64,000 nt of DNA from Verrucomicrobiales bacterium (GCA_050998515.1 JBPCQC010000079.1:6177-70176), one strand, 5' to 3'; positions 5,547 to 46,087 are shown, counted from the stretch's first letter. Notes: generated by a model not told the origin, from the letters alone. Program-made: numbers and translations.

Positions 5547-6035
5547 GAATCCCAATTCCCTCCATGTTTGCGGGTGGGTTTTGTCGCGGCTGGCCCGCTT
5601 CGTTGTGAAACAGGATCGCGATTGAGTCGCCGCCGGCAGAAGTATTCGGGCTCCTGGCTCCAAGCCTTCGCCTCGGCCTTCACTCGACTCCTGGCGAGCG
5701 CGTCGGCTCGAGGCCAGCGTGCTCGTTCGGGATCAAATTGGCTTTGCCGCGGCCGTGAGGCCGCGTGAAGCGTTGTCACCAGTTACCGCAGCGCAGACTG
5801 CTCTGGATTTGCACCAGATTCCATCTGCCAGGGCGTGTGCGCCCATAATAGGGCGCGGGGGCAGCGCGTCAACTGCGCTTCGTGTTCAGTGGCCGTTGTC
5901 GGACCGCAGGCTTTCATCTGGCTTTGACCCTGCCGTGTCGCCGGCTTGCAGCCGGCAGCGCCAAGTTCGATCGGCTTCGCCCCAACGATGCAGACCACAG
6001 CTCCGCGAAGCGGCAGACTGAAAGTCTGCGGTACG

Positions 6036-18184: not shown

Positions 18185-21100
18185 ATGTCCATCTTTGGTC
18201 GCGCGCTCGCGGAATGTCGACATCATTGCGACGATATGCTGTCGCCCCTTCAGGACTGCGGTTTTCTTCGCCTTCCACCCAGGGCGGCACTGCGTTTGCC
18301 CTGGGCTGAGATATTTCGCCCCGTTGGGGCACGGCTCCGATCTCGTGGGTCCAGTTTACTTTCGCGTCCCCGCGCGTGTTTGGCGGCTGCTGCCCTGGTG
18401 CTCGCGGTGCATCCGATCTATTTTGCTTCGATTGACATTCTTCCGCCGGGGCATCGACCGATTCCGCCGGGCGTGCATGCGCTGGTGGGAGGCACGGTGG
18501 TGGCCAAGCCGGGCGAGGTGATCGTTGGGGGGACAGTGTTGATTCGCGACGGCTTCATTGAAGGAGTTGGAAAGGACATTGCGGTCCCTGCTGACGCTCG
18601 GGTGTGGGAGATGAAGGGGCTTACGATTTACGCCGGGTTCATGGATCCTTACCTGACACTCGGAACTCCCACTCCGCCTGCGAAAACGACCCAGAGCGAA
18701 CCGATTGCCGAGGCCGGCGATCTACTGACGGCGGGAGGGATTCAGTTCTTTGGAGTTCCGGGTGCGGAGGTGGACCCGGGCAACACTGGTCCCGGTTCCG
18801 AGATTTCATTGATCACACCGGAACTGCGCATGGCGGAGAAATATGCGCCGAGCGCGAAATTACTCGAGGGGCTGCACCAGCTCGGATTCACGAGTGCGAA
18901 TGTGATTCCTGAAAAAGGAATCGTACGCGGCACGAGCGTCTTCGTGGCGTTGTCCGAGGCGAATCCAAATAGTGTCATCATCAAAGCGGAAGTTTTTCAG
19001 CACGTCGCCTTCGCTGCGGAAAGCGTCGCGTCCCTCCCGGAGGGTGAGAGACAGAATCCTTATCCGCGGTCGCTGATGGGAGTCATTGCGGCGGTGCGCC
19101 AGACGTTCTTTGACGCCGATTTTTATGCGCGCGATCACGCGGATTATCGTCAAAACCCAGTTGGGCGAAAGCGTCCGGAGTTCAATCCGTCCCGCGAGGC
19201 GCTCGGCCCCGCGGTGGCGAAAAAGATGCCTGTGGTCATCGAGGCAGGAAGTGCCTTGATGGTTGATCGCGCGGCGCGAGTGGCGCGGGAACTGGGGTTG
19301 AACTTCCATCTCGTTTCCTCCGGTCAGGAATGGCGCCGCCCCGACCTCGCAAAAACGACGCAGGCTGCCTTCATCGTCCCGCTCGATTTTCCCGAAATGC
19401 CGAAGCTGCCGGAGGAAGACGATTGGTCGCAGGTGACGCTCGATCAACTTCGCGCCTGGGATTGGTTTCCGGAGAATCCTGCCGTCCTGCGGCGCGAAGG
19501 ACTCGAGGTGGCCGTGACGACCTTTGGACTCAGCGATCGTAAACAGTTTCGGAAAAAGCTCCGACTCGCGCTGGACGCCGGATTTTCCGAAGATGACGCA
19601 CTGGCGGCCTTGACAACCGTGCCGGCGAAGCTGTGCGGGTTGGAGAAGCAACTGGGCAGCATTGAAAAGGGCAAGATAGCCAACCTCACTGTGGTTAGCG
19701 GGAGCTATTTCGTGCCGGAGAATCGAGTTCGCGAAGTTTGGATCGATGGACGGATGTATCCGCTGAAGCCACCATCGGAGCCTGCCCTAATTGCCGGCGA
19801 AAAAGCGCCAGAGGTAAAAACGCCGGTCGCGCCACAAGAACTTGAGTTGATCAAACCCAAGCCGCCCAAACCCGAATCGGAGAAGTCGGAATCGGACAAA
19901 AAAGCACAAACTGAAACTTCTGCCGCGACCCCGCAGCCAGACCTGAAACTCACGGACGAAGAACGTGAATTGCGCCGAAAACGCGTGGCGAGGTCTCCGC
20001 TCGAGGGGAGGGGAGTGCTGGCTGAAGCACCGGCGGTGCTGGTGCGCGGCGGCACGATCTGGACAAGCGGACCGAAGGGGCGCCTCGAGAATGCCGATTT
20101 CCTGGTAGTGGGCGGAAAAATTGTGGCTGTCGGCGGGAAACTTGAGATGCCCGAAGAACAACGCGAGACTGGCGTGACGATTGACGCCGCCAACTACCAC
20201 ATCACGCCAGGCCTGATCGACGTCCACAGCCACAGCATGATTCTGGGCGCGGTAAATGAAGGAACCATTCCTTCCACGGCAATGGTGCGGATTGGCGACG
20301 TGGTGAACTCGGAAACGCCGAATATTTATTGGCAGCTCGCGGGCGGTTTGACGACCGCCAGTCTCTTGCACGGCTCGGCGAACCCGATCGGCGGCCAGAA
20401 TGCGATCATCAAACTCCGCGATGGCGCCTCGCCGGAAATGTTGAAATTTGATGGCGCGCCGCCCGGCATCAAATTCGCGCTGGGGGAAAACGTGAAGCAA
20501 TCGAATTGGGGAGACCGAAACGTGACGCGCTTTCCGCAATCCCGCATGGGTGTGCAGACGTTTCTGGCCAACCGGTTCGCGGCGGCTCGGCGATATTTAA
20601 AGGAGAAACGGCAGGCGGAGGCGCGGCCGGTTCGCCGTGACCTCGAGTTGGAAGCTTTGGGCGAGATCCTCGAAGGTCAGCGCTGGATCCATTGCCACTC
20701 GTATCGGCAGGACGAGATACTCGCTTTTCTGCGCCTCATGGAGAGCTTCGGTATCAAAGTCGGAACTCTACAACATGTGCTCGAAGGCTACAAAGTTGCG
20801 GACGAAATTGCGAAGCACGGTGCAGGCGCTTCCGCTTTCGCGGATTGGTGGGCTTACAAATTCGAAGTGTTCGACGCCATTCCTTACGCCGGAAGCCTGA
20901 TGCGCGATCGCGGAGCCCTGGTCTCATTCAACTCGGACTCCTCCGATCACGCCCGTCGCATGAACCTGGAAGCGGCCAAGGCAGTGAAATATGGCGGGAC
21001 ACCGGAAATCGACGCGCTCAATTTCGTCACCATCAATCCCGCCAAACAACTTCGCATCGATCAGCGGGTGGGCTCGCTTGAATCCGGCAAAGATGCCGAC

Positions 21101-36610: not shown

Positions 36611-38440
36611 TCAACGCTCCAACCGGGAAAGGGTGGCGACAACTTCCTTTTGTTCTTTCGAGGAGATGGGTGCGGCGGCTTCAGCCAGTCCAGCGTAACT
36701 GAGGCGGGTTTGGCGGGCCAAAATCTGTTCGAGCTCGCCGTTAAGCCCGCTCGCGGTGCCGGCCCGCCCATGGTAGAATTCCCGGGAATCGACGAATTCG
36801 CGGGCGAGAGCATAAAAGTCGCGCGCGGCCAATCCGGGACGCTTCATTTGGCGCAAGATAACCAGGGAGGCTCTTGGATGGCCGATTCGGCGGCGGCGTG
36901 TCTCCTCTGCGCTCAGCCGCAACCGTCGCTGCAGTCCCATGCCAGCGAAGGTTAAAACAAGAGCGGCAGGCACCGCCTGAATGCCCCAAAATACCGCGGC
37001 GTCGGATTTTCGCGGGGTCAGGTTGCGCAGTTCGGCGCCTTCCGGCCTCACCGTGAGGATGTCCGCAAGACGCTCCTCCGGAATCGCCGCTTCGGATATC
37101 GCGAAATCTTTGGTCGGTGCTTCATCGCTTCCTGCTGGCGCCGCTTTCTCCTCGGGCGTCATTTGCAGCGGAATCGCATTCGATTGCACGGTCACGTATT
37201 TTTTTTGATCGAGGTCAAAATAGGAGAGCTGAAACGGCGGGACCTGCTGAGCCATTTTTTGAGGGATGATCACCTGGCTGAAACTGACGACGCCGGGCTC
37301 GAGTCCCAGCGAGCGATTTTCCTGCGTTTGCTTGGGCGGATAGATTTTCCAGCCTTCCGGTGAGGCCAGAAGGGGCGCCGCAACGCTGTCGAAGTTCCCC
37401 TGGCCTGCCACGGTGAGGTCGACGGCGAGCGGGTCACCCATTCGCACTTGCGGCGGTTGATTGAGACGGGCACTGAGGGTGAATTTCCCGACCGCACCCG
37501 AGAAATCAGCCGGCCGGCCTTCCGTTGGGAGCGGCTTGATGGTGATCTTGAGCACGTTGCTTTCGAGGTGGATTTGTCGGGTGATAGTGCGCTGAAAAAA
37601 CGATGGAAATCCGGGAGTTGGGGTGCGGGCACCGCTCCCTTCGGAAGGAAAATCGACCACGCAGTCCAACGTGGCGGGGCCAAGGTTCAAGAGACCCTCC
37701 TTAATGGCGGAAAGTGAGCTGCTGAAGACAATTGATTGGTACCGTTCGCCCTTGGCCTCGACCAACTCTCCCTGAAGCGGCTGAGCGAAACGTTTCACGA
37801 CAAAGTTGTCACGCGGCAACTTCGGAGGCTCGTAATTGCGCAGTTGGGTGCGTCGGTGAAACAAAGCGGTCACCTTCAAGGGCACCACTTCGCCCACGAA
37901 GATCTCCGGCTGCTCGACCTGCAGGGTGAGCAAAGGTTCATAGGAATGCCGCGGACCGACCCCTTCCTGCACCTGCAAGGTTTTTTCAGGCACCGACAGG
38001 GCCTGGCCGTTGACGATCACCTGCTGCCCCGGAATGGTAAAAAGCCCCGGGTTAGCCGCAAAAATCTGCCAGACGAACTCGGTTTGCTGCCGCAACACAC
38101 CGTTCGTCAAGCTCATGGAATTGCGGGAACTCGGCCCGTTGAATTCAAGACCCGGGACAGCAAGATTGGTGGGCAACTGTTGGATCTGGTGGCCGTTCTC
38201 GATCGTGAGCGAATATTCAGCGGTCTGACCCGCGCCAATGACCGGCGGCGAAACTGTGGCCGTTACCTGGGCTCGAACGGATGAGATGGACGCCATGAGG
38301 GCGGCGACTATTGGGAGGAAGGCAATTATGGACGGGCGCAATGATGGTGGACGCGACGCCTCGTCGCGTCTGGCGAATTCACTGAACGCGACGGGGGCGC
38401 CGCGTCCACCTTTCCAAATGTTGGGAGGACCGTTTCCCAT
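36611..38440 (-). CDS. batD: BatD-like oxygen-tolerance protein
   Basis: First ATG at 38440 (the track start is TTG). N-terminal hydrophobic segment IIAFLPIVAALMASISSVRAQ. Large periplasmic region, then a C-terminal TM helix plus a cytosolic TPR-like tail, typical of BatD. Confidence 0.75.
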   Translation of the reverse strand: MGNGPPNIWKGGRGAPVAFSEFARRDEASRPPSLRPSIIAFLPIVAALMASISSVRAQVTATVSPPVIGAGQTAEYSLTIENGHQIQQLPTNLAVPGLEFNGPSSRNSMSLTNGVLRQQTEFVWQIFAANPGLFTIPGQQVIVNGQALSVPEKTLQVQEGVGPRHSYEPLLTLQVEQPEIFVGEVVPLKVTALFHRRTQLRNYEPPKLPRDNFVVKRFAQPLQGELVEAKGERYQSIVFSSSLSAIKEGLLNLGPATLDCVVDFPSEGSGARTPTPGFPSFFQRTITRQIHLESNVLKITIKPLPTEGRPADFSGAVGKFTLSARLNQPPQVRMGDPLAVDLTVAGQGNFDSVAAPLLASPEGWKIYPPKQTQENRSLGLEPGVVSFSQVIIPQKMAQQVPPFQLSYFDLDQKKYVTVQSNAIPLQMTPEEKAAPAGSDEAPTKDFAISEAAIPEERLADILTVRPEGAELRNLTPRKSDAAVFWGIQAVPAALVLTFAGMGLQRRLRLSAEETRRRRIGHPRASLVILRQMKRPGLAARDFYALAREFVDSREFYHGRAGTASGLNGELEQILARQTRLSYAGLAEAAAPISSKEQKEVVATLSRLER

Positions 38441-38445
38441 GGCGA

Positions 38446-40509
38446 CTACCAATCCTTAAATGTGCCTTCCGGCACCGCCTTGTCCGCGAGTGGCCGAACA
38501 TAATCCTCGTCGGTCAGCGCGCGCAGCAGGGCGCGCGCCTCGTTTCGGCTAAAGCCCGTGGTCTTGTCCCGCCGGTTGTCACCCTGGGCCATTTGTTGCG
38601 CCCGTTTCTTCTTCGCGTCTCCCGATTCTCCCTGGCCAGCGTTGCTTTTCGCCTCGAGCTTGCCTTCGGCGTTTTGTTCCCCGCGGCGTTCCTTTTCATT
38701 TCCTTCAGGCGGCGTTTGGTTGGGATCCTCCTTGCCGCCTCCTTTTTGGCCGCCTTCCTGCGGTTTACTTCCCTCGCCAGGATTTTGTCCCTCTTCTCCC
38801 TTTCCTTCCTCCCCCTCCTCCTCTTCTCCTTCTCCCTCGTCTTCACCTTCTTCGTCACCTTGCTCTCCTGAATTTCCCGATTCCCCCTCTTCGCCCTGTT
38901 GGCCGTTGGGTTGCTGCTCGCCTTGCTGACCGCCCTGTTGCTTGTTCTTCTTGCCCGCTTTGCTTTTTTGTCTCAGCTGCTCGCGATATTTCTTCAATTC
39001 TTCCAGGTATTTCTTTACCTCGTCACGGTTGTGCTGGGCGTCACCGTTCCCGGGAGCGAGGGCAAGCGACGCGTCATAATGCTCGACGGCCGTGGTCAGA
39101 ATGTCGATCATCCGGGTGATACGTCCCTTGCCTTTCGGCAGCGATTGCGCTTTGCCTGCCAGGGCGTTGGCGAGGTTGTATTCCGCCTGGGCCTGATTGG
39201 ACGGGGTCTTCGAGATCAGGGCCCGTCCAAATGACTCGATCGCGGCATCGAAATCCTTAAGCCGATAGGCGGCGGCGGCGCGGCCAAATTCCAATTGGGC
39301 CAGCCGTTCGTCGGAAGGTTTCTTTTCAATTGAGTCGCCGAAGGCGTCGAGCGACTCTTCGTATTGCTGCGCTTGGTAAAGCTGCCACGGGTTTTGTGCG
39401 GCGCGAGGTTTTTGAGCCACAGCCGCACTGAGATTGGTGGCGCCGGTAACGAGCACGAGACCGGCCCACGCTACCGCCGGTCTTGACATCATCGAAGGCG
39501 TCCAGAAGCGCAGCCGCCGACCCATTTTCACGACAAAGGCCGCTGCAAAACACAGGAGAGCGGGAACCAAAGCCCATCGATAACGCTCGATTGGCTGGCG
39601 CTTGTCCTTTTGCGCCTGCGTGCGTGAACGGTCTAATTTGGAAAGAATCACCTGAATACGCCCTTGTAGAACACTCGTACTGCTAAGATTGAGATAAAGC
39701 CCCTGCGTTTCTTTAGCCACACCCTCCAAAGCCTTGTCTTCGAGACGAGAGCGCACCGGCCGCCCTTTTTCGTCTCGCAAAAATCCGCCCGGCCGGCGCG
39801 AGTTGAAGTCTGGCAGCAGGGTCCCTTCACGCGTGCCTACGCCGACAGCCACGATAATAATATTGTGGTCCTTTGCTTTTTTGGCGGCCTCGATGGCTCG
39901 ACCCTCGGTCTCGTCACCATCGGTGAACATAATCAAAGCATGGCTGGCACTGCCGGACTTGTCAAAAGCCTCGATGGCAAGCTCGATCGGTTCCGCGAGG
40001 TTCGATCCGCCGCGGGGAATCAGTTCCTCGTCGAATTGGGCCAGAGTTTCGAGAAGCGCGTCATGGTCGGTGGTGAGAGGCGCCTGGAGAAACGAGCGCC
40101 CGGCAAAGGCGATCAGCCCAATCCTGTCGCCCGGCAACGCCGCGATGAGGTCCTGTGCCGCCAGCTTGGCTCGAGTCAGCCGATCAGGGGTTAGATCAGT
40201 CGCCAGCATCGAGCGCGAAGTGTCCAAAGCGATGATGATCGAGCGCCCCTGGCCGCTGACCTCCCGTTCGGTGTAGCCCCACTGAGGCCGGGCCCAGGCG
40301 GCCACCAGCAGGAGCAGGCCGAGAAGTTCGAGCAAAAAGACGAACGCATCGCGGCCGCGCCAGCCTCCCTGTTTGAGGCTCGAAAGCAAGCGCGGGCCCG
40401 CCACCCGCGCCAGCCGCCGCCGCCCCATTCCATCAGCGATGATTTTCACCACCGCGAGCGGAATGAGCAGCAGCAAAAAGAGAAAAGCGTCGGCGTTGGC
40501 GAATTGCAT
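38446..40509 (-). CDS. batB: BatB-BatC fusion: N-terminal TM + vWA domain, central TM, TPR region, ~150-aa poly-acidic E/G/Q-rich tail
   Basis: ATG 40507-40509 (MQFANADAFLFLLLLIPLAVV). vWA MIDAS context (IIIALDTSRSM...TDG). TPR (AAAYRLKDFDAAIESFGRAL). Tail GEEGESGNSGEQGDEEGEDEGEGEEEEGEEGKGEEG. Confidence 0.8.
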   Translation of the reverse strand: MQFANADAFLFLLLLIPLAVVKIIADGMGRRRLARVAGPRLLSSLKQGGWRGRDAFVFLLELLGLLLLVAAWARPQWGYTEREVSGQGRSIIIALDTSRSMLATDLTPDRLTRAKLAAQDLIAALPGDRIGLIAFAGRSFLQAPLTTDHDALLETLAQFDEELIPRGGSNLAEPIELAIEAFDKSGSASHALIMFTDGDETEGRAIEAAKKAKDHNIIIVAVGVGTREGTLLPDFNSRRPGGFLRDEKGRPVRSRLEDKALEGVAKETQGLYLNLSSTSVLQGRIQVILSKLDRSRTQAQKDKRQPIERYRWALVPALLCFAAAFVVKMGRRLRFWTPSMMSRPAVAWAGLVLVTGATNLSAAVAQKPRAAQNPWQLYQAQQYEESLDAFGDSIEKKPSDERLAQLEFGRAAAAYRLKDFDAAIESFGRALISKTPSNQAQAEYNLANALAGKAQSLPKGKGRITRMIDILTTAVEHYDASLALAPGNGDAQHNRDEVKKYLEELKKYREQLRQKSKAGKKNKQQGGQQGEQQPNGQQGEEGESGNSGEQGDEEGEDEGEGEEEEGEEGKGEEGQNPGEGSKPQEGGQKGGGKEDPNQTPPEGNEKERRGEQNAEGKLEAKSNAGQGESGDAKKKRAQQMAQGDNRRDKTTGFSRNEARALLRALTDEDYVRPLADKAVPEGTFKDW

Positions 40510-40510
40510 C

Positions 40511-40537
40511 TGAATTGCGGATTGCGGATTGCGGAGC
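40511..40537. repeat. Heptamer tandem array (ATTGCGG)x3, left flank of the four-helix-bundle gene
   Basis: TGAATTGCGGATTGCGGATTGCGGAGC immediately after the batBC start. Confidence 0.7.
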
Positions 40538-40549
40538 TATCGGAGGGTT

Positions 40550-40846
40550 CTATTTCGAGGAACGCGCTGTGCGAATTGAAGCAACGATGATGGAAAGAAT
40601 TTCTTCGCCTTCTCGGTGCAAATCAGCCAGCCTCTCCGGCTTCATTAGTCCTGCCTCGCAGAGCAGTTCGAACCAATTAAGGGTTTCATCCGCCTCTTCT
40701 TCAACGATTCCCAACTTGGCGATGAAGTCGGCCTTCGATTTTCCGCGACAAGCTGAGCGGTAGTTTGCGCCCACGGACGTCGCGGCCTTTAGCAACTGGC
40801 GACAGATTACTTCTGTGCTTCGGCGCGGCGGTAGCGCGTCCAGCAC
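40550..40846 (-). CDS. Four-helix-bundle protein (23S rRNA intervening-sequence protein family), N-terminally truncated
   Basis: GTG start. QLLKAATSVGANYRSACRGKSKADFIAKLGIVEEEADETLNWFELL matches the family core (QLRRAA.SIPSNIAEG..R.S..DF..FL.IA.GS..E...). The first helix (~35 aa) is missing. Flanked by inverted GGATTGC heptamer arrays. Confidence 0.55.
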   Translation of the reverse strand: MLDALPPRRSTEVICRQLLKAATSVGANYRSACRGKSKADFIAKLGIVEEEADETLNWFELLCEAGLMKPERLADLHREGEEILSIIVASIRTARSSK

Positions 40847-40932
40847 CTTGATGACGCGCCGCGAACTGCTTCGTCCGTTCTTTGTGCTGTTCAGTCTTTG
40901 AGTTCATGATTCGCAATGGTGTGCCGAACCTC

Positions 40933-40967
40933 GAATTTCCCAATCCGAAATCCGCAATCCGAAATTC
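40933..40967. repeat. Heptamer array in inverted orientation (CCGAAAT/CCGCAAT), right flank of the four-helix-bundle gene
   Basis: GAATTTCCCAATCCGAAATCCGCAATCCGAAATTC is the reverse complement of the 40511-40537 motif family. Confidence 0.7.
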
Positions 40968-42065
40968 TCATGCAGGAATCTCCCGCATGAGAGTTTGCCT
41001 CAGCGCCATGCCGATGGCCGCGGTGAAAAATGCCGCGCCGACAAACCATTCGAACAGCTCGTCACGTTCGACCAGGGTCTGCCTTTTGATCTCAGTTTTC
41101 TCGAGCCTGTCAATCGTCCCAAAAATCCGCTCGAGGCCGCTGGTATCCTGGGCCCGAAAAAACTGGCCTCCAGTCATGTCGGCAATCCTCTTCATGATTT
41201 CGGTGTCGAATTCCTGCCTCATCCCGGGCAGGTAACGACCGGATCGATCAGGCAGCGGAATGCGGTGATAGCCTTCCGTGCCGACAGCGATGGCGTAAAC
41301 TTTGATGCCGAGATTCTGGGCAAAACGTGCCGCATCCAGCGGCGCAATATTCCCGGAGTTATTCGAGCCGTCGGTTAACAGCACGATCACCTTGCTCTTC
41401 ACGTCCTTGTTGCGGCTGTCAAGGCGCCGGGTCGCGGCAGCGATTCCCGAGCCGATGGCGGTGCCGTCCTCGACGGCTCCCATTCTGACCTGTTCCTCGA
41501 GCGTTTTACGCAGCCACTGGTGGTCGAGCGTAAGCGGACTGGCCACATAGGGCCTTCCGGCAAAGGCAACCAGGCCGATCCGATCGCTCGGGCGGCCGGC
41601 GATAAAATCGCGGCACACCCTTTTCGCGACCGACATGCGATTGACCGTCTGCCCGCCGCTGGTGAAGTCCTCGATCGACATCGAAAGCGAGACATCGATG
41701 GTGAGCATGACTTCGATGCCGCTGCTGGTGATATTTTCCTGCGTGCGCACATGCTGGGGACGGGCCAGCGCGGCGATGCCGAGCGCGAGCGTGAGGTACG
41801 GCAACGCCGCCGAAAACATCCCGAGCGCGGATCGTCCCGGCCGGGCGATCTGTCGCAGCAGGTGGAGTGAGGAAAATGTCACCGCGGGTCCAGCGCCGCG
41901 TGCCCCCCGCAAAAATGCCAGCACCGGCAACAACGCGAGCAGCCAAAACCAGGCTGGCTCCGCAAACTGGCATTCCCTTACGTAGCGCCAAAAGCTCTCA
42001 ATACGGAACGGGAAGTCCACAGCGCTTTGGGTTGAATGAGAAAGCATCCGCCTGTGACGGCGCAT
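40968..42065 (-). CDS. batA: BatA-like protein (TM + vWA domain)
   Basis: ATG 42063-42065; the family-typical start lies near FAEPAWFWLLALLPVLAFL. vWA MIDAS (MLTIDVSLSMSIED...LLTDGSNNSG). C-terminal TM. Confidence 0.8.
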   Translation of the reverse strand: MRRHRRMLSHSTQSAVDFPFRIESFWRYVRECQFAEPAWFWLLALLPVLAFLRGARGAGPAVTFSSLHLLRQIARPGRSALGMFSAALPYLTLALGIAALARPQHVRTQENITSSGIEVMLTIDVSLSMSIEDFTSGGQTVNRMSVAKRVCRDFIAGRPSDRIGLVAFAGRPYVASPLTLDHQWLRKTLEEQVRMGAVEDGTAIGSGIAAATRRLDSRNKDVKSKVIVLLTDGSNNSGNIAPLDAARFAQNLGIKVYAIAVGTEGYHRIPLPDRSGRYLPGMRQEFDTEIMKRIADMTGGQFFRAQDTSGLERIFGTIDRLEKTEIKRQTLVERDELFEWFVGAAFFTAAIGMALRQTLMREIPA

Positions 42066-42810
42066 TGGCCGGAAGGGGCGGTGGCCCGGGAGGAAGCATC
42101 GGATTGCGGATTGCGGATTTCGGATCTCGGATTTCAGGCGCCACGCCCTGAACTGCCCGAAGGTCTGCTGCCGGCTCTGGCATTTCGAGTTCGTTCGATT
42201 GAACGAGAATTACAGGCAAAGGAGGCGGAGGAGGCGAAGCGGGATTTCGGATTTCGGAGGGCGGAGTGGGGATTTTCAATTCAGGATTCGGCATTCTCCA
42301 GTCCGGCGCATTTTGATCTTGCTCGACGGCGGCAATGGCTTGCTCGACCAACATCATCCGCTCGGCGCGGGCGGATTCGATGCGCCCATATTTTATGCGG
42401 TCACAGCCGCGCAGAACCGGTTCGAATGTGCGCAAAAAGGGGAGGGGAGGAGGACCGCCGCCGCCATTGCGGCCAATCATCTCATCGGTGGTTCGATAGC
42501 GAGCGAGCAGCCCTCTGGCCCTTTGCAGATAATGCCGGAGGCTTTCGCTGACCGCCCCGGCCAGTTCTGCCGAATCAAGAGTTCCGGCCAGCGCCTTTAA
42601 CTCTCCCAATTCGCGCAACGCCGCGGTGCCTGCACTCAGCGGCAACGGGGGCAGGCGCGGGTGCCGCCGGATCCAACGCACCCAGGCAATCAACGCCAAA
42701 AATAAACCGACCGCCACAATCGCTCCGAACACTGACCAGACGATCACCCGCGCTGGATCGGGCGGCTCGACGGGTGGCGCAATATCGCGAAGTTCAGGAA
42801 AGGGAGGCAC
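41998..42810 (-). CDS. DUF4381-like small membrane protein of bat operons, with a 3-prime extension running through heptamer repeats
   Basis: GTG start (MPPFPELRDIAPPVEPPDPARVIVW + TM helix). The last ~100 codons translate GGATTGC/GGATTTC repeats (…SEIRNPASP…PEIRDPKSAIRNP…) and overlap batA by 68 nt, so the effective end is questionable. Confidence 0.5.
   Translation of the reverse strand: MPPFPELRDIAPPVEPPDPARVIVWSVFGAIVAVGLFLALIAWVRWIRRHPRLPPLPLSAGTAALRELGELKALAGTLDSAELAGAVSESLRHYLQRARGLLARYRTTDEMIGRNGGGGPPPLPFLRTFEPVLRGCDRIKYGRIESARAERMMLVEQAIAAVEQDQNAPDWRMPNPELKIPTPPSEIRNPASPPPPPLPVILVQSNELEMPEPAADLRAVQGVAPEIRDPKSAIRNPMLPPGPPPLPANAPSQADAFSFNPKRCGLPVPY
42101..42138. repeat. Heptamer array (GGATTGC/GGATTTC) at the batA 5-prime end / DUF4381 tail
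   Basis: GGATTGCGGATTGCGGATTTCGGATCTCGGATTTCAGG. Confidence 0.65.
42241..42295. repeat. Heptamer array (GGATTTC variants) inside the DUF4381-like ORF tail
   Basis: GGGATTTCGGATTTCGGAGGGCGGAGTGGGGATTTTCAATTCAGGATTCGG. Confidence 0.6.
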
Positions 42811-42830
42811 GGGCGCAAGGTAGAATGCAG

Positions 42831-42858
42831 AATGCAGGATGCAGAAGGAAATTTAGGC
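42831..42858. repeat. Related heptamer array (GAATGCA)x3-4 between the DUF58 and DUF4381 genes
   Basis: TAGAATGCAGAATGCAGGATGCAGAAGG. Confidence 0.55.
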
Positions 42859-42875: not shown

Positions 42876-43781
42876 TTACCTGCTTCCTCGCTTTTCCCTG
42901 CGGCGGAAAAAGCCATGCAAGGCCGCCTGGTAGTCTTCACCGGCCCGGACGTCGATTTTGTCTATCGAGAGTGATTTGAAGGCGCGGTCGAGGTTTTCCT
43001 GCCACGCGGTGCGCAAAGCGGTGTAATGGCTGCGCACCCGAGCCTTGGCTGTGTTGACGACGATTTCCTCACCCGTCTCAGGATCGGCCAGGCGCAGCCG
43101 GCCGGCATTGGGCAGGGCCAGCTCGGCCGGGTCGGAGACCTGGATCGCGACCACGTCATGTCGAATGGCCGCCGTCCGCAGCGCCGCCTGAACGTTTTCA
43201 CACTGAAAATCAGAAATGACCAGAACCAGACAACGCCGGCTGGTGTGACGGCTGATGAGATCAAGCGCAGGCTTCGGATCCGTGCCGCGCCCGAGAGCCC
43301 GCGCGTAAAGGATGTCACGCACCATGCGAAGCGTCTGCCGGCGGCTCTTCGCCGGAGGCAGGAACAGCTCGACCTGATCGGAAAAAAGCACCAGTCCGCA
43401 CTTGTCCTGGTTGTAGATCGCGGAAAAAGCAAAGACCGCCGCCACCTCCGCGGCCAGTTCACGCTTCGATTGCTCGAGGCTCCCATAAAGGCCCGAACCG
43501 CTGACATCGACCGCCAGATAAACCGTCAGCTCGCGCTCCTCGACGTACTTGCGGATAAACGGTGTCCCTTGCCTCGCCGTGACGTTCCAGTCAATCGACC
43601 GCACTTCATCGCCGGGCTGGTATTCCCTGAAATCATCGAAGTCGATCCCCTGGCCCTTGAACACCGAATGATATTCCCCGCCCGCCTTCGAGCGCACAAT
43701 GCCGCGCGTGATCAGTTCGATGCGCCGAACCTTTTTGAGGAGTTCGGTGATTGAATCGGGCTCGGGAGATACGGTGGCCAT
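42876..43781 (-). CDS. DUF58 protein (MoxR-associated vWA-like)
   Basis: First ATG at 43781 (track start TTG 43787). DUF58 block (GEYHSVFKGQGIDFDDFREYQPGDEVRSIDWNVTAR). Confidence 0.85.
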   Translation of the reverse strand: MATVSPEPDSITELLKKVRRIELITRGIVRSKAGGEYHSVFKGQGIDFDDFREYQPGDEVRSIDWNVTARQGTPFIRKYVEERELTVYLAVDVSGSGLYGSLEQSKRELAAEVAAVFAFSAIYNQDKCGLVLFSDQVELFLPPAKSRRQTLRMVRDILYARALGRGTDPKPALDLISRHTSRRCLVLVISDFQCENVQAALRTAAIRHDVVAIQVSDPAELALPNAGRLRLADPETGEEIVVNTAKARVRSHYTALRTAWQENLDRAFKSLSIDKIDVRAGEDYQAALHGFFRRREKRGSR

Positions 43782-43924
43782 CGGCAATGCTATGATTGGT
43801 AATTGTTAAATGCCAATATGCTTTGCCTTCTCGGGCGGCTTGAGATGATTTCGCGCACAATTACCACTGAAGAATTGCTAGACAGCACCTCCGTCAATTG
43901 CGACGGGCAAATTCAAGCTTGTAA

Positions 43925-44180
43925 ATGCCATCCGCAGGCTTGCGAACGCCCCATACGAGCCTGCGAATGGCAGAAACAAGTCTGAAATCGCCATCCGCAG
44001 GCTTGCGGACGCCAAATACAAGCTGCGGAGGGCGTATGCAGGCTTGCGGACGCGAAAAACGAACCTGCGGACGACACAAACTGACTCGTCGCCCGCAGAG
44101 ACCCACTCAGGAACCGCAAAAACAGGTTTGCGATTGCCGAAAGCGAGTGTGCAAGCGGGGATGACCTGCTTGCGACTGGT
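43925..44180. repeat. Iteron-like array of a ~16-nt motif GCAGGCTTGCGGACGC (three direct copies plus several inverted/partial copies at irregular spacing)
   Basis: CCATCCGCAGGCTTGCGAACGCC at 43928-43950. CCATCCGCAGGCTTGCGGACGCC at 43991-44013. ATGCAGGCTTGCGGACGCG at 44036-44054. Inverted AGCCTGCGAATGG at 43957-43970. CCTGCGGACGA at 44064-44074. Confidence 0.6.
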
Positions 44181-44337: not shown

Positions 44338-44366
44338 TTGGGTGATGTCTCCTCCACTTTATATTG
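44338..44366 (+). promoter_or_regulatory. Candidate sigma70-type promoter for the methyltransferase gene (TTGGGT-17-TATATT)
   Basis: -35 TTGGGT at 44338-44343, 17-nt spacer, -10 TATATT at 44361-44366, 25 nt upstream of ATG 44392. Sequence match only. Confidence 0.35.
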
Positions 44367-44391
44367 GGGCTCGATTCTGATCAAGCACAAC

Positions 44392-46087
44392 ATGCAGGCC
44401 ACTGAGGTCGAAAACTCGCCTTGTCATCGGTGGTCCGAACCCGCACAATTCCGTTTAATGGGAACGCTCTATTACGGCGACAATCTCGATATTCTGCGCC
44501 GCTACATCGAGGACGAGTCGGTCGACCTCGTTTACCTCGATCCGCCGTTCAACTCAGCGCAAAACTACAACGCCTTCTTTCAGGAAAAGGACGGGACCGC
44601 GGCGGCGGCGCAGATCAGCGCTTTCGAGGACACGTGGGAGTGGAATCAGGAGGCCGAGCACGTTTACGGCGAGCTGATTACCCGGGCAGGCAAGGTCCGT
44701 GAGGTGATGGAAGCCTTCATGACCTTTCTCGGTCGCAACGACATGATGGCCTACCTCGTCATGATGGCCCCGCGTCTGGTCGAGCTGCGCCGCGCCCTCA
44801 AGAAAACCGGCTCCCTTTACCTGCACTGCGACCCGACGGCTTCCCATTACCTGAAGCTGCTGCTGGATGCGGTGTTTGGAATTGACGGCTACCGCTCTGA
44901 AATTGTGTGGAAAAGGACGACAACTCACAACGATTCCAAGCGATGGTCCGACAACACCGACACAGTTTTCTTCTATACAAAAAGCAGAGGCAATTCGGAA
45001 TCGTTTACTTGGAACCCGCAGCACGACCAATATAGTGAGGACTACCTCGCCGATAAATATCGTTACGATGATGGCGACGGCCGGGGATCTTACCGGCTCG
45101 ACAACATGACGAGTCCGAACCCAAGGCCGAATATGATGTACGAGTGGAAAGGGCACGCATCACCGGAGAAAGGTTGGCGGTACTCGAAAGAAACAATGGC
45201 GCAGTTAGATGCCGAAGGACGTATCTGGTACCCTTCGAGTAAGGACAAGCGTCCTCAGCTGAAGCGCTACCTCGCGCAAGGCAAAGGTCCTGTCATGGGC
45301 AACCTGTGGACCGACATCAACCCCATCAATTCCCAAGCTCAGGAGCGTCTTGGTTATCCGACCCAAAAGCCCGTAGCCTTGCTCGAGAGGATCATTAAAG
45401 CGAGCTCCGACGAAGGCGACGTAGTGCCTCGATCCCTTCTGCGGGTGTGGTACGACAATTGACGCCGCGGAAAAACTAGGTCGGGATTGGATTGGGATCG
45501 ACATAACCTATCTGGCGATTGCACTGATCAAGAACCGGCTCAAAAGCTCGTACGGCGAGGGCATTCACCTGAAAACGGTGGGAGAGCCGGTCAGTCTCGC
45601 GGATGCGCAGCAGTTGGCGAATGATGACAAATTCCAATTCCAATGGTGGGCGCTGGGGTTGGTAGGCGCGCGCCCGGTGGAGGAAAAGAAAGGCGCCGAT
45701 AAAGGGGTGGACGGCAAGATTTTGTTTAGGGAAACACCCAAAGACCCGAAGTCGCAACAGATCATCTTTTCCGTTAAAGGCGGCGGAGTGAGTGTAAAGG
45801 ACATTCGCGATCTGCGCGGCACCGTCGAGCGAGAGAAGGCGCTCATCGGAGTGCTGGTAACGATGAAGAAGCCGACCAAGGACATGCTATCGGAGGCGGC
45901 CTCGGCTGGTTTTTACGAAAGCACCGTCTGGCAGAAACAGTATCCGAAGCTGCAAATCCACACCGTGGCGGAATTGCTCGATGGCAAGCAGGTCCAGCGC
46001 CCGCCAACCCGGGCGCTGGATGAGACTTTCAAGAACGCGCCGAAGGCACAGAAAAAAGGGGACGAGCAACTGGAGCTACTTCAATGA
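44392..46087 (+). pseudogene. Beta-class N6/N4 DNA methyltransferase fused to a C-terminal Mrr-type PD-(D/E)xK restriction-endonuclease domain, interrupted by a 1-nt frameshift
   Basis: Motif IV DPPF (VDLVYLDPPFN). ...GYPTQKPVALLERIIKASSDEGDVV, then the frame breaks at 45427-45428 (GTGCCTCGAT; one C too many). The +1 frame continues LDPFCGCGTT (motif I) uninterrupted into track ORF 45578..46087, whose product matches Mrr_cat (WALGLVGA...DKGVDGKILF...QQIIFSVKGGGVSVKDIRDLRGTV...GVLVT...). Track pieces: 44338..45462 and 45578..46087. Confidence 0.75.

Follow-up and report, generated by a model that had tools for sequence, protein, structure and literature searches.

The 64,000-nucleotide stretch of DNA examined here (the window; GCA_050998515.1, JBPCQC010000079.1:6177-70176, from a Verrucomicrobiales bacterium) carries an aerotolerance (bat) operon with a small cassette between batA and a batB/C-like gene. 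The cassette is 470 nt long (40505-40974) and consists of a four-helix-bundle (4HB) gene enclosed by two inverted arrays of heptamers. All features of the cassette and of the bat operon are on the minus strand. Using domain searches, we assigned the neighboring genes to DUF58 (42876-43787), DUF4381 (41998-42810), BatA (40968-42065), a BatB/C-like protein (38446-40509), BatD (36611-38452), and a TPR protein, all of them co-oriented. The upstream host gene, batA, encodes the BatA N-terminal domain PF07584 and a VWA domain (NCBI product of 350 aa, called from a start other than the ATG at 42065). The downstream host gene, batB/C-like, encodes VWA and TPR domains (687 aa) from an ATG that lies 4 nt past the heptamer array. 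A spacer of 458 nt separates the stop codon of batA from the start codon of batB. An earlier reading made from the DNA alone (the sequence-only reading) had placed the open reading frame (ORF) of the cassette inside a bat operon, and the BatA and BatB/C-like neighbors bear this out.

On the sense strand, GAATTTCGGATTGCGGATTTCGGATTGGG precedes the 98-aa ORF of the cassette, and CTCCGCAATCCGCAATCCGCAATTC comes after it. The 5′ arm (40937-40974) is a GT-rich array, GAATTTC GGATTGC GGATTTC GGATTGG, whose outer extension, TGCAT, overlaps the stop codon of batA (TGA, 40968-40970). The 3′ arm (40505-40537) is the CA-rich array CTCCGCAATCCGCAATCCGCAATTC with an outer extension that contains the batB/C start codon (ATG, 40509-40507). 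A repeat search returned these arms as 31-nt inverted repeats (40505-40535 and 40944-40974), 87% complementary and 408 nt apart, as expected from the inverted heptamer boundaries claimed in the sequence-only reading. Matches to the heptamer-array pattern numbered 13, compared to 3.7 on average and no more than 8 in any of 100 dinucleotide shuffles, and a second array pattern gave 23 matches against 9.5, above all 100 dinucleotide shuffles. The arm pair had a Smith-Waterman score of 21, and the highest score among 71 displaced control pairs was 13. When we folded the 491-nt RNA spanning 40495-40985 (z = −2.15), the terminal stem was present in both the minimum free energy (MFE) and centroid structures, and the isolated arms formed an interrupted 32-bp duplex of −44.8 kcal/mol. 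A terminator function was considered and rejected, as the loop would be 400 nt and no T-run lies past the 3′ arm. We found no sigma-70-like promoter in the scanned region (40300-41200), no Rfam match to the cassette even at an E value of ≤1, no rRNA above the Rfam gathering thresholds anywhere in the window, and, reading the sequence by eye, no direct repeat outside the arms. By tblastn, the 64-kb window has a single copy of the cassette.

Within the arms, the 4HB gene (PF05635/TIGR02436) occupies 40550-40907, from an ATG at 40907 to a TAG stop at 40550-40552. Only the 98-aa ORF at 40550-40846, with a GTG start, is annotated or callable; NCBI names it "four helix bundle protein" in a Verrucomicrobiales metagenome-assembled genome (P0001). 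This ORF matched PF05635 at 52.3 bits over profile positions 26 to 105 (cut-off, 33.8), as the sequence-only reading had proposed, and the match rose to 60.1 bits over positions 7 to 105 with the repaired protein. The protein also matched TIGR02436 at 83.5 bits (cut-off, 24) and PDB entry 2RLD with an E value of 1e-16. Its closest protein relative is 69% identical.

The sequence-only reading had held that the first helix is missing, and here it was mistaken. In its own frame, the 98-aa ORF can be extended upstream by just 19 codons, and the adjacent frame encodes helix 1 as MNSKTEQHKERTKQFAAR, starting from the ATG at 40907. In an alignment of 24 full-length homologues, the repaired N terminus matched the invariant R11 and R18 and the nearly invariant T12, F15, and A16, and tblastn with the repaired protein placed residues 1 to 18 and 18 to 119 in two frames. 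At the frameshift site (40854-40862) the DNA reads gcggcgcgtc in place of the gcggcgcgCGtc of the homologues, and the family requires gcggcgcgNGtc. The loss of one CG unit from the GCGGCGCG run at 40854-40862, i.e., a 2-nt deletion, would explain this most simply. The frameshift sequence is identical in a second assembly of the organism. We rejected programmed frameshifting, given that the homologues are all single-frame. With residues 1 to 18 out of frame, the window lacks the intact ORF of about 115 to 130 aa with four helices found in other members. Since helix 1 was put out of frame by the loss of 2 nt, the copy in the window is, as judged from its sequence, a pseudogene, which agrees with the earlier suggestion of a decaying gene.

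We compared the cassette with 80 homologous loci from species-representative genomes of about ten phyla (Verrucomicrobiota, Planctomycetota, Acidobacteriota, Chloroflexota, Nitrospirota, Cyanobacteria, Bacteroidota, delta-proteobacterial lineages, and others). Search windows were anchored on the tblastn match, flank arms were scored by local Smith-Waterman alignment, and the 71 displaced pairs served as controls. An inverted flank match above every displaced control was present in 71 of 79 loci, with a median score of 21 for own pairs against a control median of 9 and maximum of 13. In 21 loci, the own partner was the best of 78 possible partners, where about one would be expected. Arrays were 15-fold denser beside the 4HB gene than elsewhere in the same loci (2.07 versus 0.14 per kb). 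The arms show a fixed polarity, with the GT-rich arm being 5′ in 66 of 71 loci; because they are inverted repeats, the GT-rich arm is 5′ on either strand. After phase alignment, the dominant unit was G-A-[T/a/g]-T-[G/T]-[C/t]-N (consensus GA-N-T-K-Y-N, where "K" is G or T and "Y" is pyrimidine), with 8.4 bits of information compared to 3.7 to 4.3 in letter-shuffled controls. The GA is conserved in 70 to 71 of the 71 loci and T4 in 66. The GATTGCG and GATTTCG units of the window fit this consensus. Strict GA-phased units per arm had a mode of 4 to 5 and a range of 2 to 11, the element had a median length of 469 nt, close to the 470 nt of the window, and the end of the 3′ arm lay a median of 11.5 nt from the next start codon. 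We propose that the members form a cassette class in which an S23p/Avd-like 4HB ORF of about 120 aa lies between inverted arrays of 4 to 5 heptamers. The locus in the window has the 4HB ORF, the inverted GA-N-T-K-Y-N arrays, the size (about 450 to 500 nt), and the short spacer of this class.

The ORF-plus-arms unit recurs between unrelated genes in many phyla, as the cassette behavior proposed in the sequence-only reading would predict. The first two homologous loci were PSD1|DUF1501, with GGAGTGC arrays, and ABC ATPase|permease, with GGAATGC arrays, both co-oriented with their operons; further sites include CysD|CysN and Rieske|cytochrome b, among others. Viral-contig homologues, down to 37% identity, had arms in six of seven cases. 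None of the 80 loci lies within rRNA. No target-site duplication was detectable across 71 cassettes, the longest common substring averaging 3.01 between own flanks and 3.03 across loci. We saw no transposase adjacent to the cassette in any inspected locus and no reverse transcriptase among the called neighbor genes of the inspected homologues. Two of our assays were less sensitive: a strict period-7 detector, which misses imperfect arrays, found both arms in just 24 of 83 loci, and duplex folding of 210- to 250-nt flanks did not discriminate own from displaced pairs (−124 kcal/mol for each). Two further observations concern the surroundings of individual cassettes. A tRNA-Sec gene stands immediately upstream in three Acidobacteriota loci (L027, 2279-2373; L031, 2274-2368; L039, 2321-2415). 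In viral contigs L100 and L101 (around 2830-2900), the 3′ arm is directly followed by an ORF beginning MSSRIAQALTKLFDRHRIVFWYDAKQELR, a start that may resemble the PglZ-type N termini of bacteriophage exclusion (BREX) systems.

Genome-specific repeat families could mimic the difference between own and cross-locus arm matches, and it therefore matters whether the arms depend on the host. Loci L006 and L046 each contain two cassettes about 1.5 kb apart, with different heptamers, each having its own complement. The upstream cassette (L006, 421-1077; L046, 546-1016) encodes a distant 4HB subfamily (...ANYCEA...) with AATGACT-type arrays, and the other has ATTTCGG. We found three more unrelated loci of this second subfamily, CysD|CysN, epimerase|RibBA, and ABC ATPase|permease, with AATGACG or AATGTCT arms (L105, L108, and L110, around 700-1300). 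Two second-subfamily loci have perfect arm complementarity (30 of 30), and the arrays of this subfamily extend into the 4HB start codon. At least two copies of AATG[AT]C were present in the 5′ arm in three of four independent second-subfamily contexts and in none of 71 first-subfamily loci (Fisher P = 6e-5). The arm sequence follows the cassette rather than the host genome. The order of unlike units is also mirrored between the arms, e.g., in L020, L051, and L079, and singleton unit variants were mirrored 47 times compared to 39 cases with the majority base in the other arm, counts to be taken cautiously because the register-shift test is biased by the prior choice of the best register. Cassette-specific arms and mirrored order together imply that ORF and arms are inherited, and must be inserted, as one unit, and the cassette in the window probably arrived in this way.

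Seven pairs of loci have both neighbor genes in common, with neighbor proteins 55 to 92% identical, and these shared neighbors identify them as orthologous insertions. Between them, the 4HB gene had a ratio of nonsynonymous to synonymous substitutions (dN/dS) of 0.09 to 0.29 at dS values from 0.4 to saturation. The arms were 84 to 100% identical where the proportion of synonymous differences (pS) was 0.3 to 0.77, an identity inflated by alternative registers, as periodic arms align easily. Both protein and arms are maintained, under purifying selection, and a cassette can persist at one site through long divergence. At the batA-batB junction itself, the closest relatives (BatA 70 to 73% identical) have a spacer of 39 to 75 nt and no 4HB gene, and we saw no orthologous full-length gene free of arms. 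A metagenome scan with BatA returned relatives merely 27 to 39% identical, unusable for the question of empty sites. Because close relatives are without an insert at batA|batB, the cassette would have been either gained in its own lineage or lost in others.

Heptamer arrays are also found apart from the cassette. We identified three solo arrays in the bat operon, which on the plus strand read CGGATTG x4.9 (42100-42133, shortly before batA, where the DUF4381 ORF has its C-terminal tail), GGATTTC x2.4 (42242-42258, also in the DUF4381 tail, with a degenerate array continuing to about 42274), and AGAATGC x3.6 (42817-42846, in the DUF58-DUF4381 spacer). All are of the GA-N-T type and have the sense-strand polarity of the 3′ arm of the cassette; they may be scars, targets, or separate elements. 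No period-7 arrays were present elsewhere in the 64-kb window outside the bat operon. The 5′ arm of the cassette can pair with the array at 42100 at −47.5 kcal/mol, compared to −44.8 kcal/mol with its own 3′ arm; pairing of 40930-40980 with 42090-42145 would loop out the entire batA gene. One of the close relatives without the 4HB gene (L095) has a solo array built from another heptamer, (CCCCTTA/C)x4, at 2908-2952, directly before the batB start codon. In L085 (92-170 and 1686-1763), L028 (121-187), and L067 (4266-4305), forward and reverse arrays form tight pairs separated by 5 to 30 nt, too little for an ORF, and resemble the arms of the cassette closed into an "empty" hairpin. As a side observation, the domain match of the DUF4381 ORF is confined to residues 6 to 95, and its tail of more than 100 residues runs through the heptamer arrays (SEIRNP..., PEIRDPKSAIRNP) and overlaps the batA start. 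The relative L092 has a similarly long DUF4381 tail built from different repeats.

ORF-bearing intervening sequences (IVSs) of rRNA have been known since about 1990, including in Leptospira and others, and the 23S IVSs are inserted in helix 9, 25, or 45. The closest likeness to our cassette is the IVS in helix 45 of the Coxiella burnetii 23S rRNA, which is 428 to 444 nt long and carries an S23p ORF (PMC4990558). Before this ORF stand three to four tandem heptamers (GACAGAT) whose copy number varies among strains, and a 28-bp terminal stem is cut by RNase III at the first repeat (PMC4990558). Window element and IVS agree in the PF05635 4HB protein (S23p), in size class (428 to 444 versus 470 nt), in an ORF that is sense to the host transcript and decays in some lineages, in terminal inverted repeats enclosing the element as a stem (in the window, the arms, their duplex, and the stem of the MFE and centroid folds), and in tandem heptamers between stem base and ORF. 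They differ in that the host of the window element is the batA/batB mRNA spacer rather than a 23S rRNA helix, in that its heptamer is of the GATTGCG type rather than GACAGAT, and in that RNase III excision has been shown in Coxiella and is inferred for the window element.

Because the Coxiella IVS has the same parts, we interpret the element as a cassette of the IVS type within an operon transcript. Our favored interpretation, to which we give slightly better than an even chance, is that 40505-40974 is a decaying copy of a widespread IVS-type cassette in an operon spacer, with the arms pairing in the bat transcript. The cassette would be promoterless and transcribed within the bat operon. Its arms would pair in the transcript as an interrupted stem of about 30 bp with the ORF looped out, which would set the batA stop beside the batB start. 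By analogy with the Coxiella IVS, the stem would be a likely substrate of RNase III. It may also permit ribosomes to couple from batA through the 4HB gene to batB, making the insertion tolerable to the operon. Such a hand-over would fit three features of the class: many 4HB ORFs continue across the 3′ arm and so have C-terminal tails, the arm abuts the next start codon, and the arrays of the second subfamily contain the 4HB start. The cassette, having arrived as a unit, would now be a pseudogenized passenger in this genome.

Several points weigh against this interpretation. In a comparison of G·U with A·C mismatches, our most specific test for pairing in the sense RNA, arm mismatches were not enriched in G·U pairs on the 4HB sense strand; with 49 sense-wobble and 80 antisense-wobble cases (P = 0.008), the bias was in the reverse direction. 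A stem alone fails to explain the invariant GA..T core, the 66:5 polarity, and the 4 to 5 units, features that suggest sequence-specific recognition by some factor; the obvious choice for a reader of the repeats, as a speculation, would be the 4HB protein in its pentameric form. Cleavage by RNase III between cistrons could harm rather than be neutral. Heptamer arrays can exist, or persist, independently of a 4HB gene, as solo arrays stand at three other operon junctions and in L095. The register problem noted above also tempers the apparent conservation of the arms. Finally, the cassette was co-oriented in 46 of 55 cases in which both neighbors are on the same strand, yet this 84% is about what any resident gene would show in strand-biased genomes, and the neighbor calls rest on a longest-ORF heuristic.

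In an alternative that we hold as possible but doubtful, the arrays are putative binding sites of the 4HB protein, one unit per subunit of a pentamer, as single-stranded RNA or DNA. The protein would then control how its own cassette is processed, translated, or moved, with the dispersed solo arrays as further targets of the protein or as its footprints. TRAP binding to GAG repeats and RAYT proteins acting on REPINs offer analogies. RAYT genes are flanked by repetitive extragenic palindromic (REP) or REPIN sequences and so, as in the cassette, a small gene lies between inverted short repeats that are also dispersed between genes. RAYT systems differ in that the 4HB protein is not a Y1 transposase, in having single palindromes instead of tandem heptamers, and in that the 4HB genes are multicopy. 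Specific reading by the protein would account for the GA and T4 core that is invariant across phyla, the fixed polarity, the modal 4 to 5 units in both arms, a heptamer flavor that follows the 4HB subfamily and not the host, arm sequence conserved beyond synonymous saturation, and purifying selection on the protein. It would also be in keeping with the homopentameric toroid stated for the Xanthomonas S23p structure (PMC4990558) and with Xanthomonas GGGAATC arrays, which fit a GA-A-T core (PMC4692102). However, at a protein identity of about 60%, loci still differ freely at three of the seven unit positions, the number of units spans a wide range (2 to 11), and the link between subfamily and heptamer comes from four independent second-subfamily loci and could be explained by common descent of the whole cassette. 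If the arrays were instead terminal inverted repeats for a recombinase acting in trans, the cassette would be a mobile element at the DNA level, a transposon or miniature inverted-repeat transposable element (MITE), with the 4HB gene as cargo. This we consider unlikely. Inverted termini, small size, intergenic location, presence/absence polymorphism among relatives, the same cassette type in unrelated operons and phyla, and the absent G·U signature on the sense strand would all suit such an element. Against it, purifying selection acts on the "cargo", which is the sole component that stays constant, own and cross-locus flanks agree at 3.01 and 3.03 and so give no target-site duplication, the inspected loci have no adjacent transposase, the termini differ between cassettes of one genome, and orthologous insertions persist while neighbor proteins diverge to 55 to 67% identity, unlike active MITEs. 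For these reasons the "MITE-like" label of the sequence-only reading does not stand, and the 23S rRNA IVS is the better analogy.

We also asked what remains if the arrays and the gene have nothing to do with each other, i.e., if common, slippage-prone heptamer microsatellites happen to surround an ordinary resident small gene. Arrays without a 4HB gene do occur in the window, in L095, and elsewhere in the fetched loci (0.14 per kb), and stand-alone intergenic arrays are described in Xanthomonas, Nostoc, and Beggiatoaceae (PMC4692102, PMC4679880). Nevertheless, the 15-fold enrichment beside 4HB genes, the complementary pairs in 71 of 79 loci, the mirrored unit order and singletons (47 versus 39), the 66:5 polarity, and the genomes having two heptamer types, each with its own partner, speak against coincidence. 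We regard it as very unlikely, and largely refuted by the enrichment, the arm pairs, the mirroring, and the two-type genomes. The published arrays resemble the cassette arms in several respects. GGGAATC in Xanthomonas, GGGGATT in Nostoc, and TAACTGA in Beggiatoaceae have a period of 7 and about 4 units (PMC4692102, PMC4679880), and GGGAATC and GGGGATT, when rotated, fit the GA-N-T core. They lie mostly between co-oriented genes; of the roughly 186 GGGAATC arrays in Xanthomonas, 70 stand in convergent pairs (70 to 75 cases), and the Beggiatoaceae arrays abut start codons (PMC4692102, PMC4679880). The difference is that these papers treat stand-alone G-quadruplex or regulatory repeats and mention no enclosed 4HB/S23p gene, whereas the cassette arrays are the arms of a gene-bearing palindrome (PMC4692102, PMC4679880). 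Last, the 4HB gene could be an Avd accessory gene bereft of its reverse transcriptase, i.e., the remnant of a diversity-generating retroelement (DGR). The PF05635 family resembles Avd, with a related 4HB fold (PMC10053308), and both are small, basic, and, according to the literature, pentameric. Yet the immediate neighbors in the window are all bat genes, no reverse transcriptase is among the called genes beside the inspected homologues, PADLOC gave no match for the locus, and the flanking arrays are not template or variable repeats; cassettes of this class are flanked by heptamers and stand in unrelated operons with neither a reverse transcriptase nor a template/variable repeat pair. A DGR remnant is scarcely credible here, the least probable of the explanations we considered.

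Our literature search did not find non-rRNA 4HB genes described as palindromic heptamer cassettes in operons; subscription journals were thinly covered, and a prior description is possible. Other features of the window lie apart from the cassette. An Acido-Lenti-1 RNA motif (18278-18331, plus strand) scored 37.2 bits against a gathering threshold of 37 and is unexpected in a Verrucomicrobiales metagenome-assembled genome, and a cobalamin riboswitch (5642-5822, minus strand) scored 39 bits. An imperfect 20- to 21-nt tandem repeat of about three copies lies upstream of the bat operon (43997-44073). An ORF at 44338-45462 (plus strand) has an LDPPFN motif, which, from the translation, we take to be typical of N6/N4 DNA methyltransferases; a second plus-strand ORF (45578-46087) follows after a gap of 115 nt, and the two may be a split or two-part gene.

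The locus in the window is itself a dead copy of modest importance, and its value is as an entry to a conserved element class that crosses phyla. Together with the more than 70 related loci, it shows the IVS design of ORF, heptamers, and terminal stem to be a portable unit that, in our sample, occupies non-rRNA sites, usually operon spacers, with a conserved repeat core and polarity and with protein and arms both under selection. For annotation, such cassettes split operons, give rise to read-through C-terminal tails, and account for low-complexity peptides of the "IRNP/RIADCG" type. They would also join three puzzles that have stood unlinked: the origin and purpose of ORF-bearing rRNA IVSs, the function of the Avd-like PF05635/TIGR02436 family, and the excess of tandem 7-nt repeats between bacterial genes. 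The question thereby becomes testable in ordinary operons of cultivable bacteria. We further put forward, with low confidence, that the cassette may be a self-contained module in which a pentameric 4HB ring reads the 4 to 5 heptamers on its own arm and so governs how the cassette is processed, translationally coupled, or copied. If this is true, ORF-bearing 23S IVSs, the thousands of "orphan" 4HB genes in operons, and the excess intergenic heptamer microsatellites of Xanthomonas, Nostoc, and others would be one unrecognized class of element.

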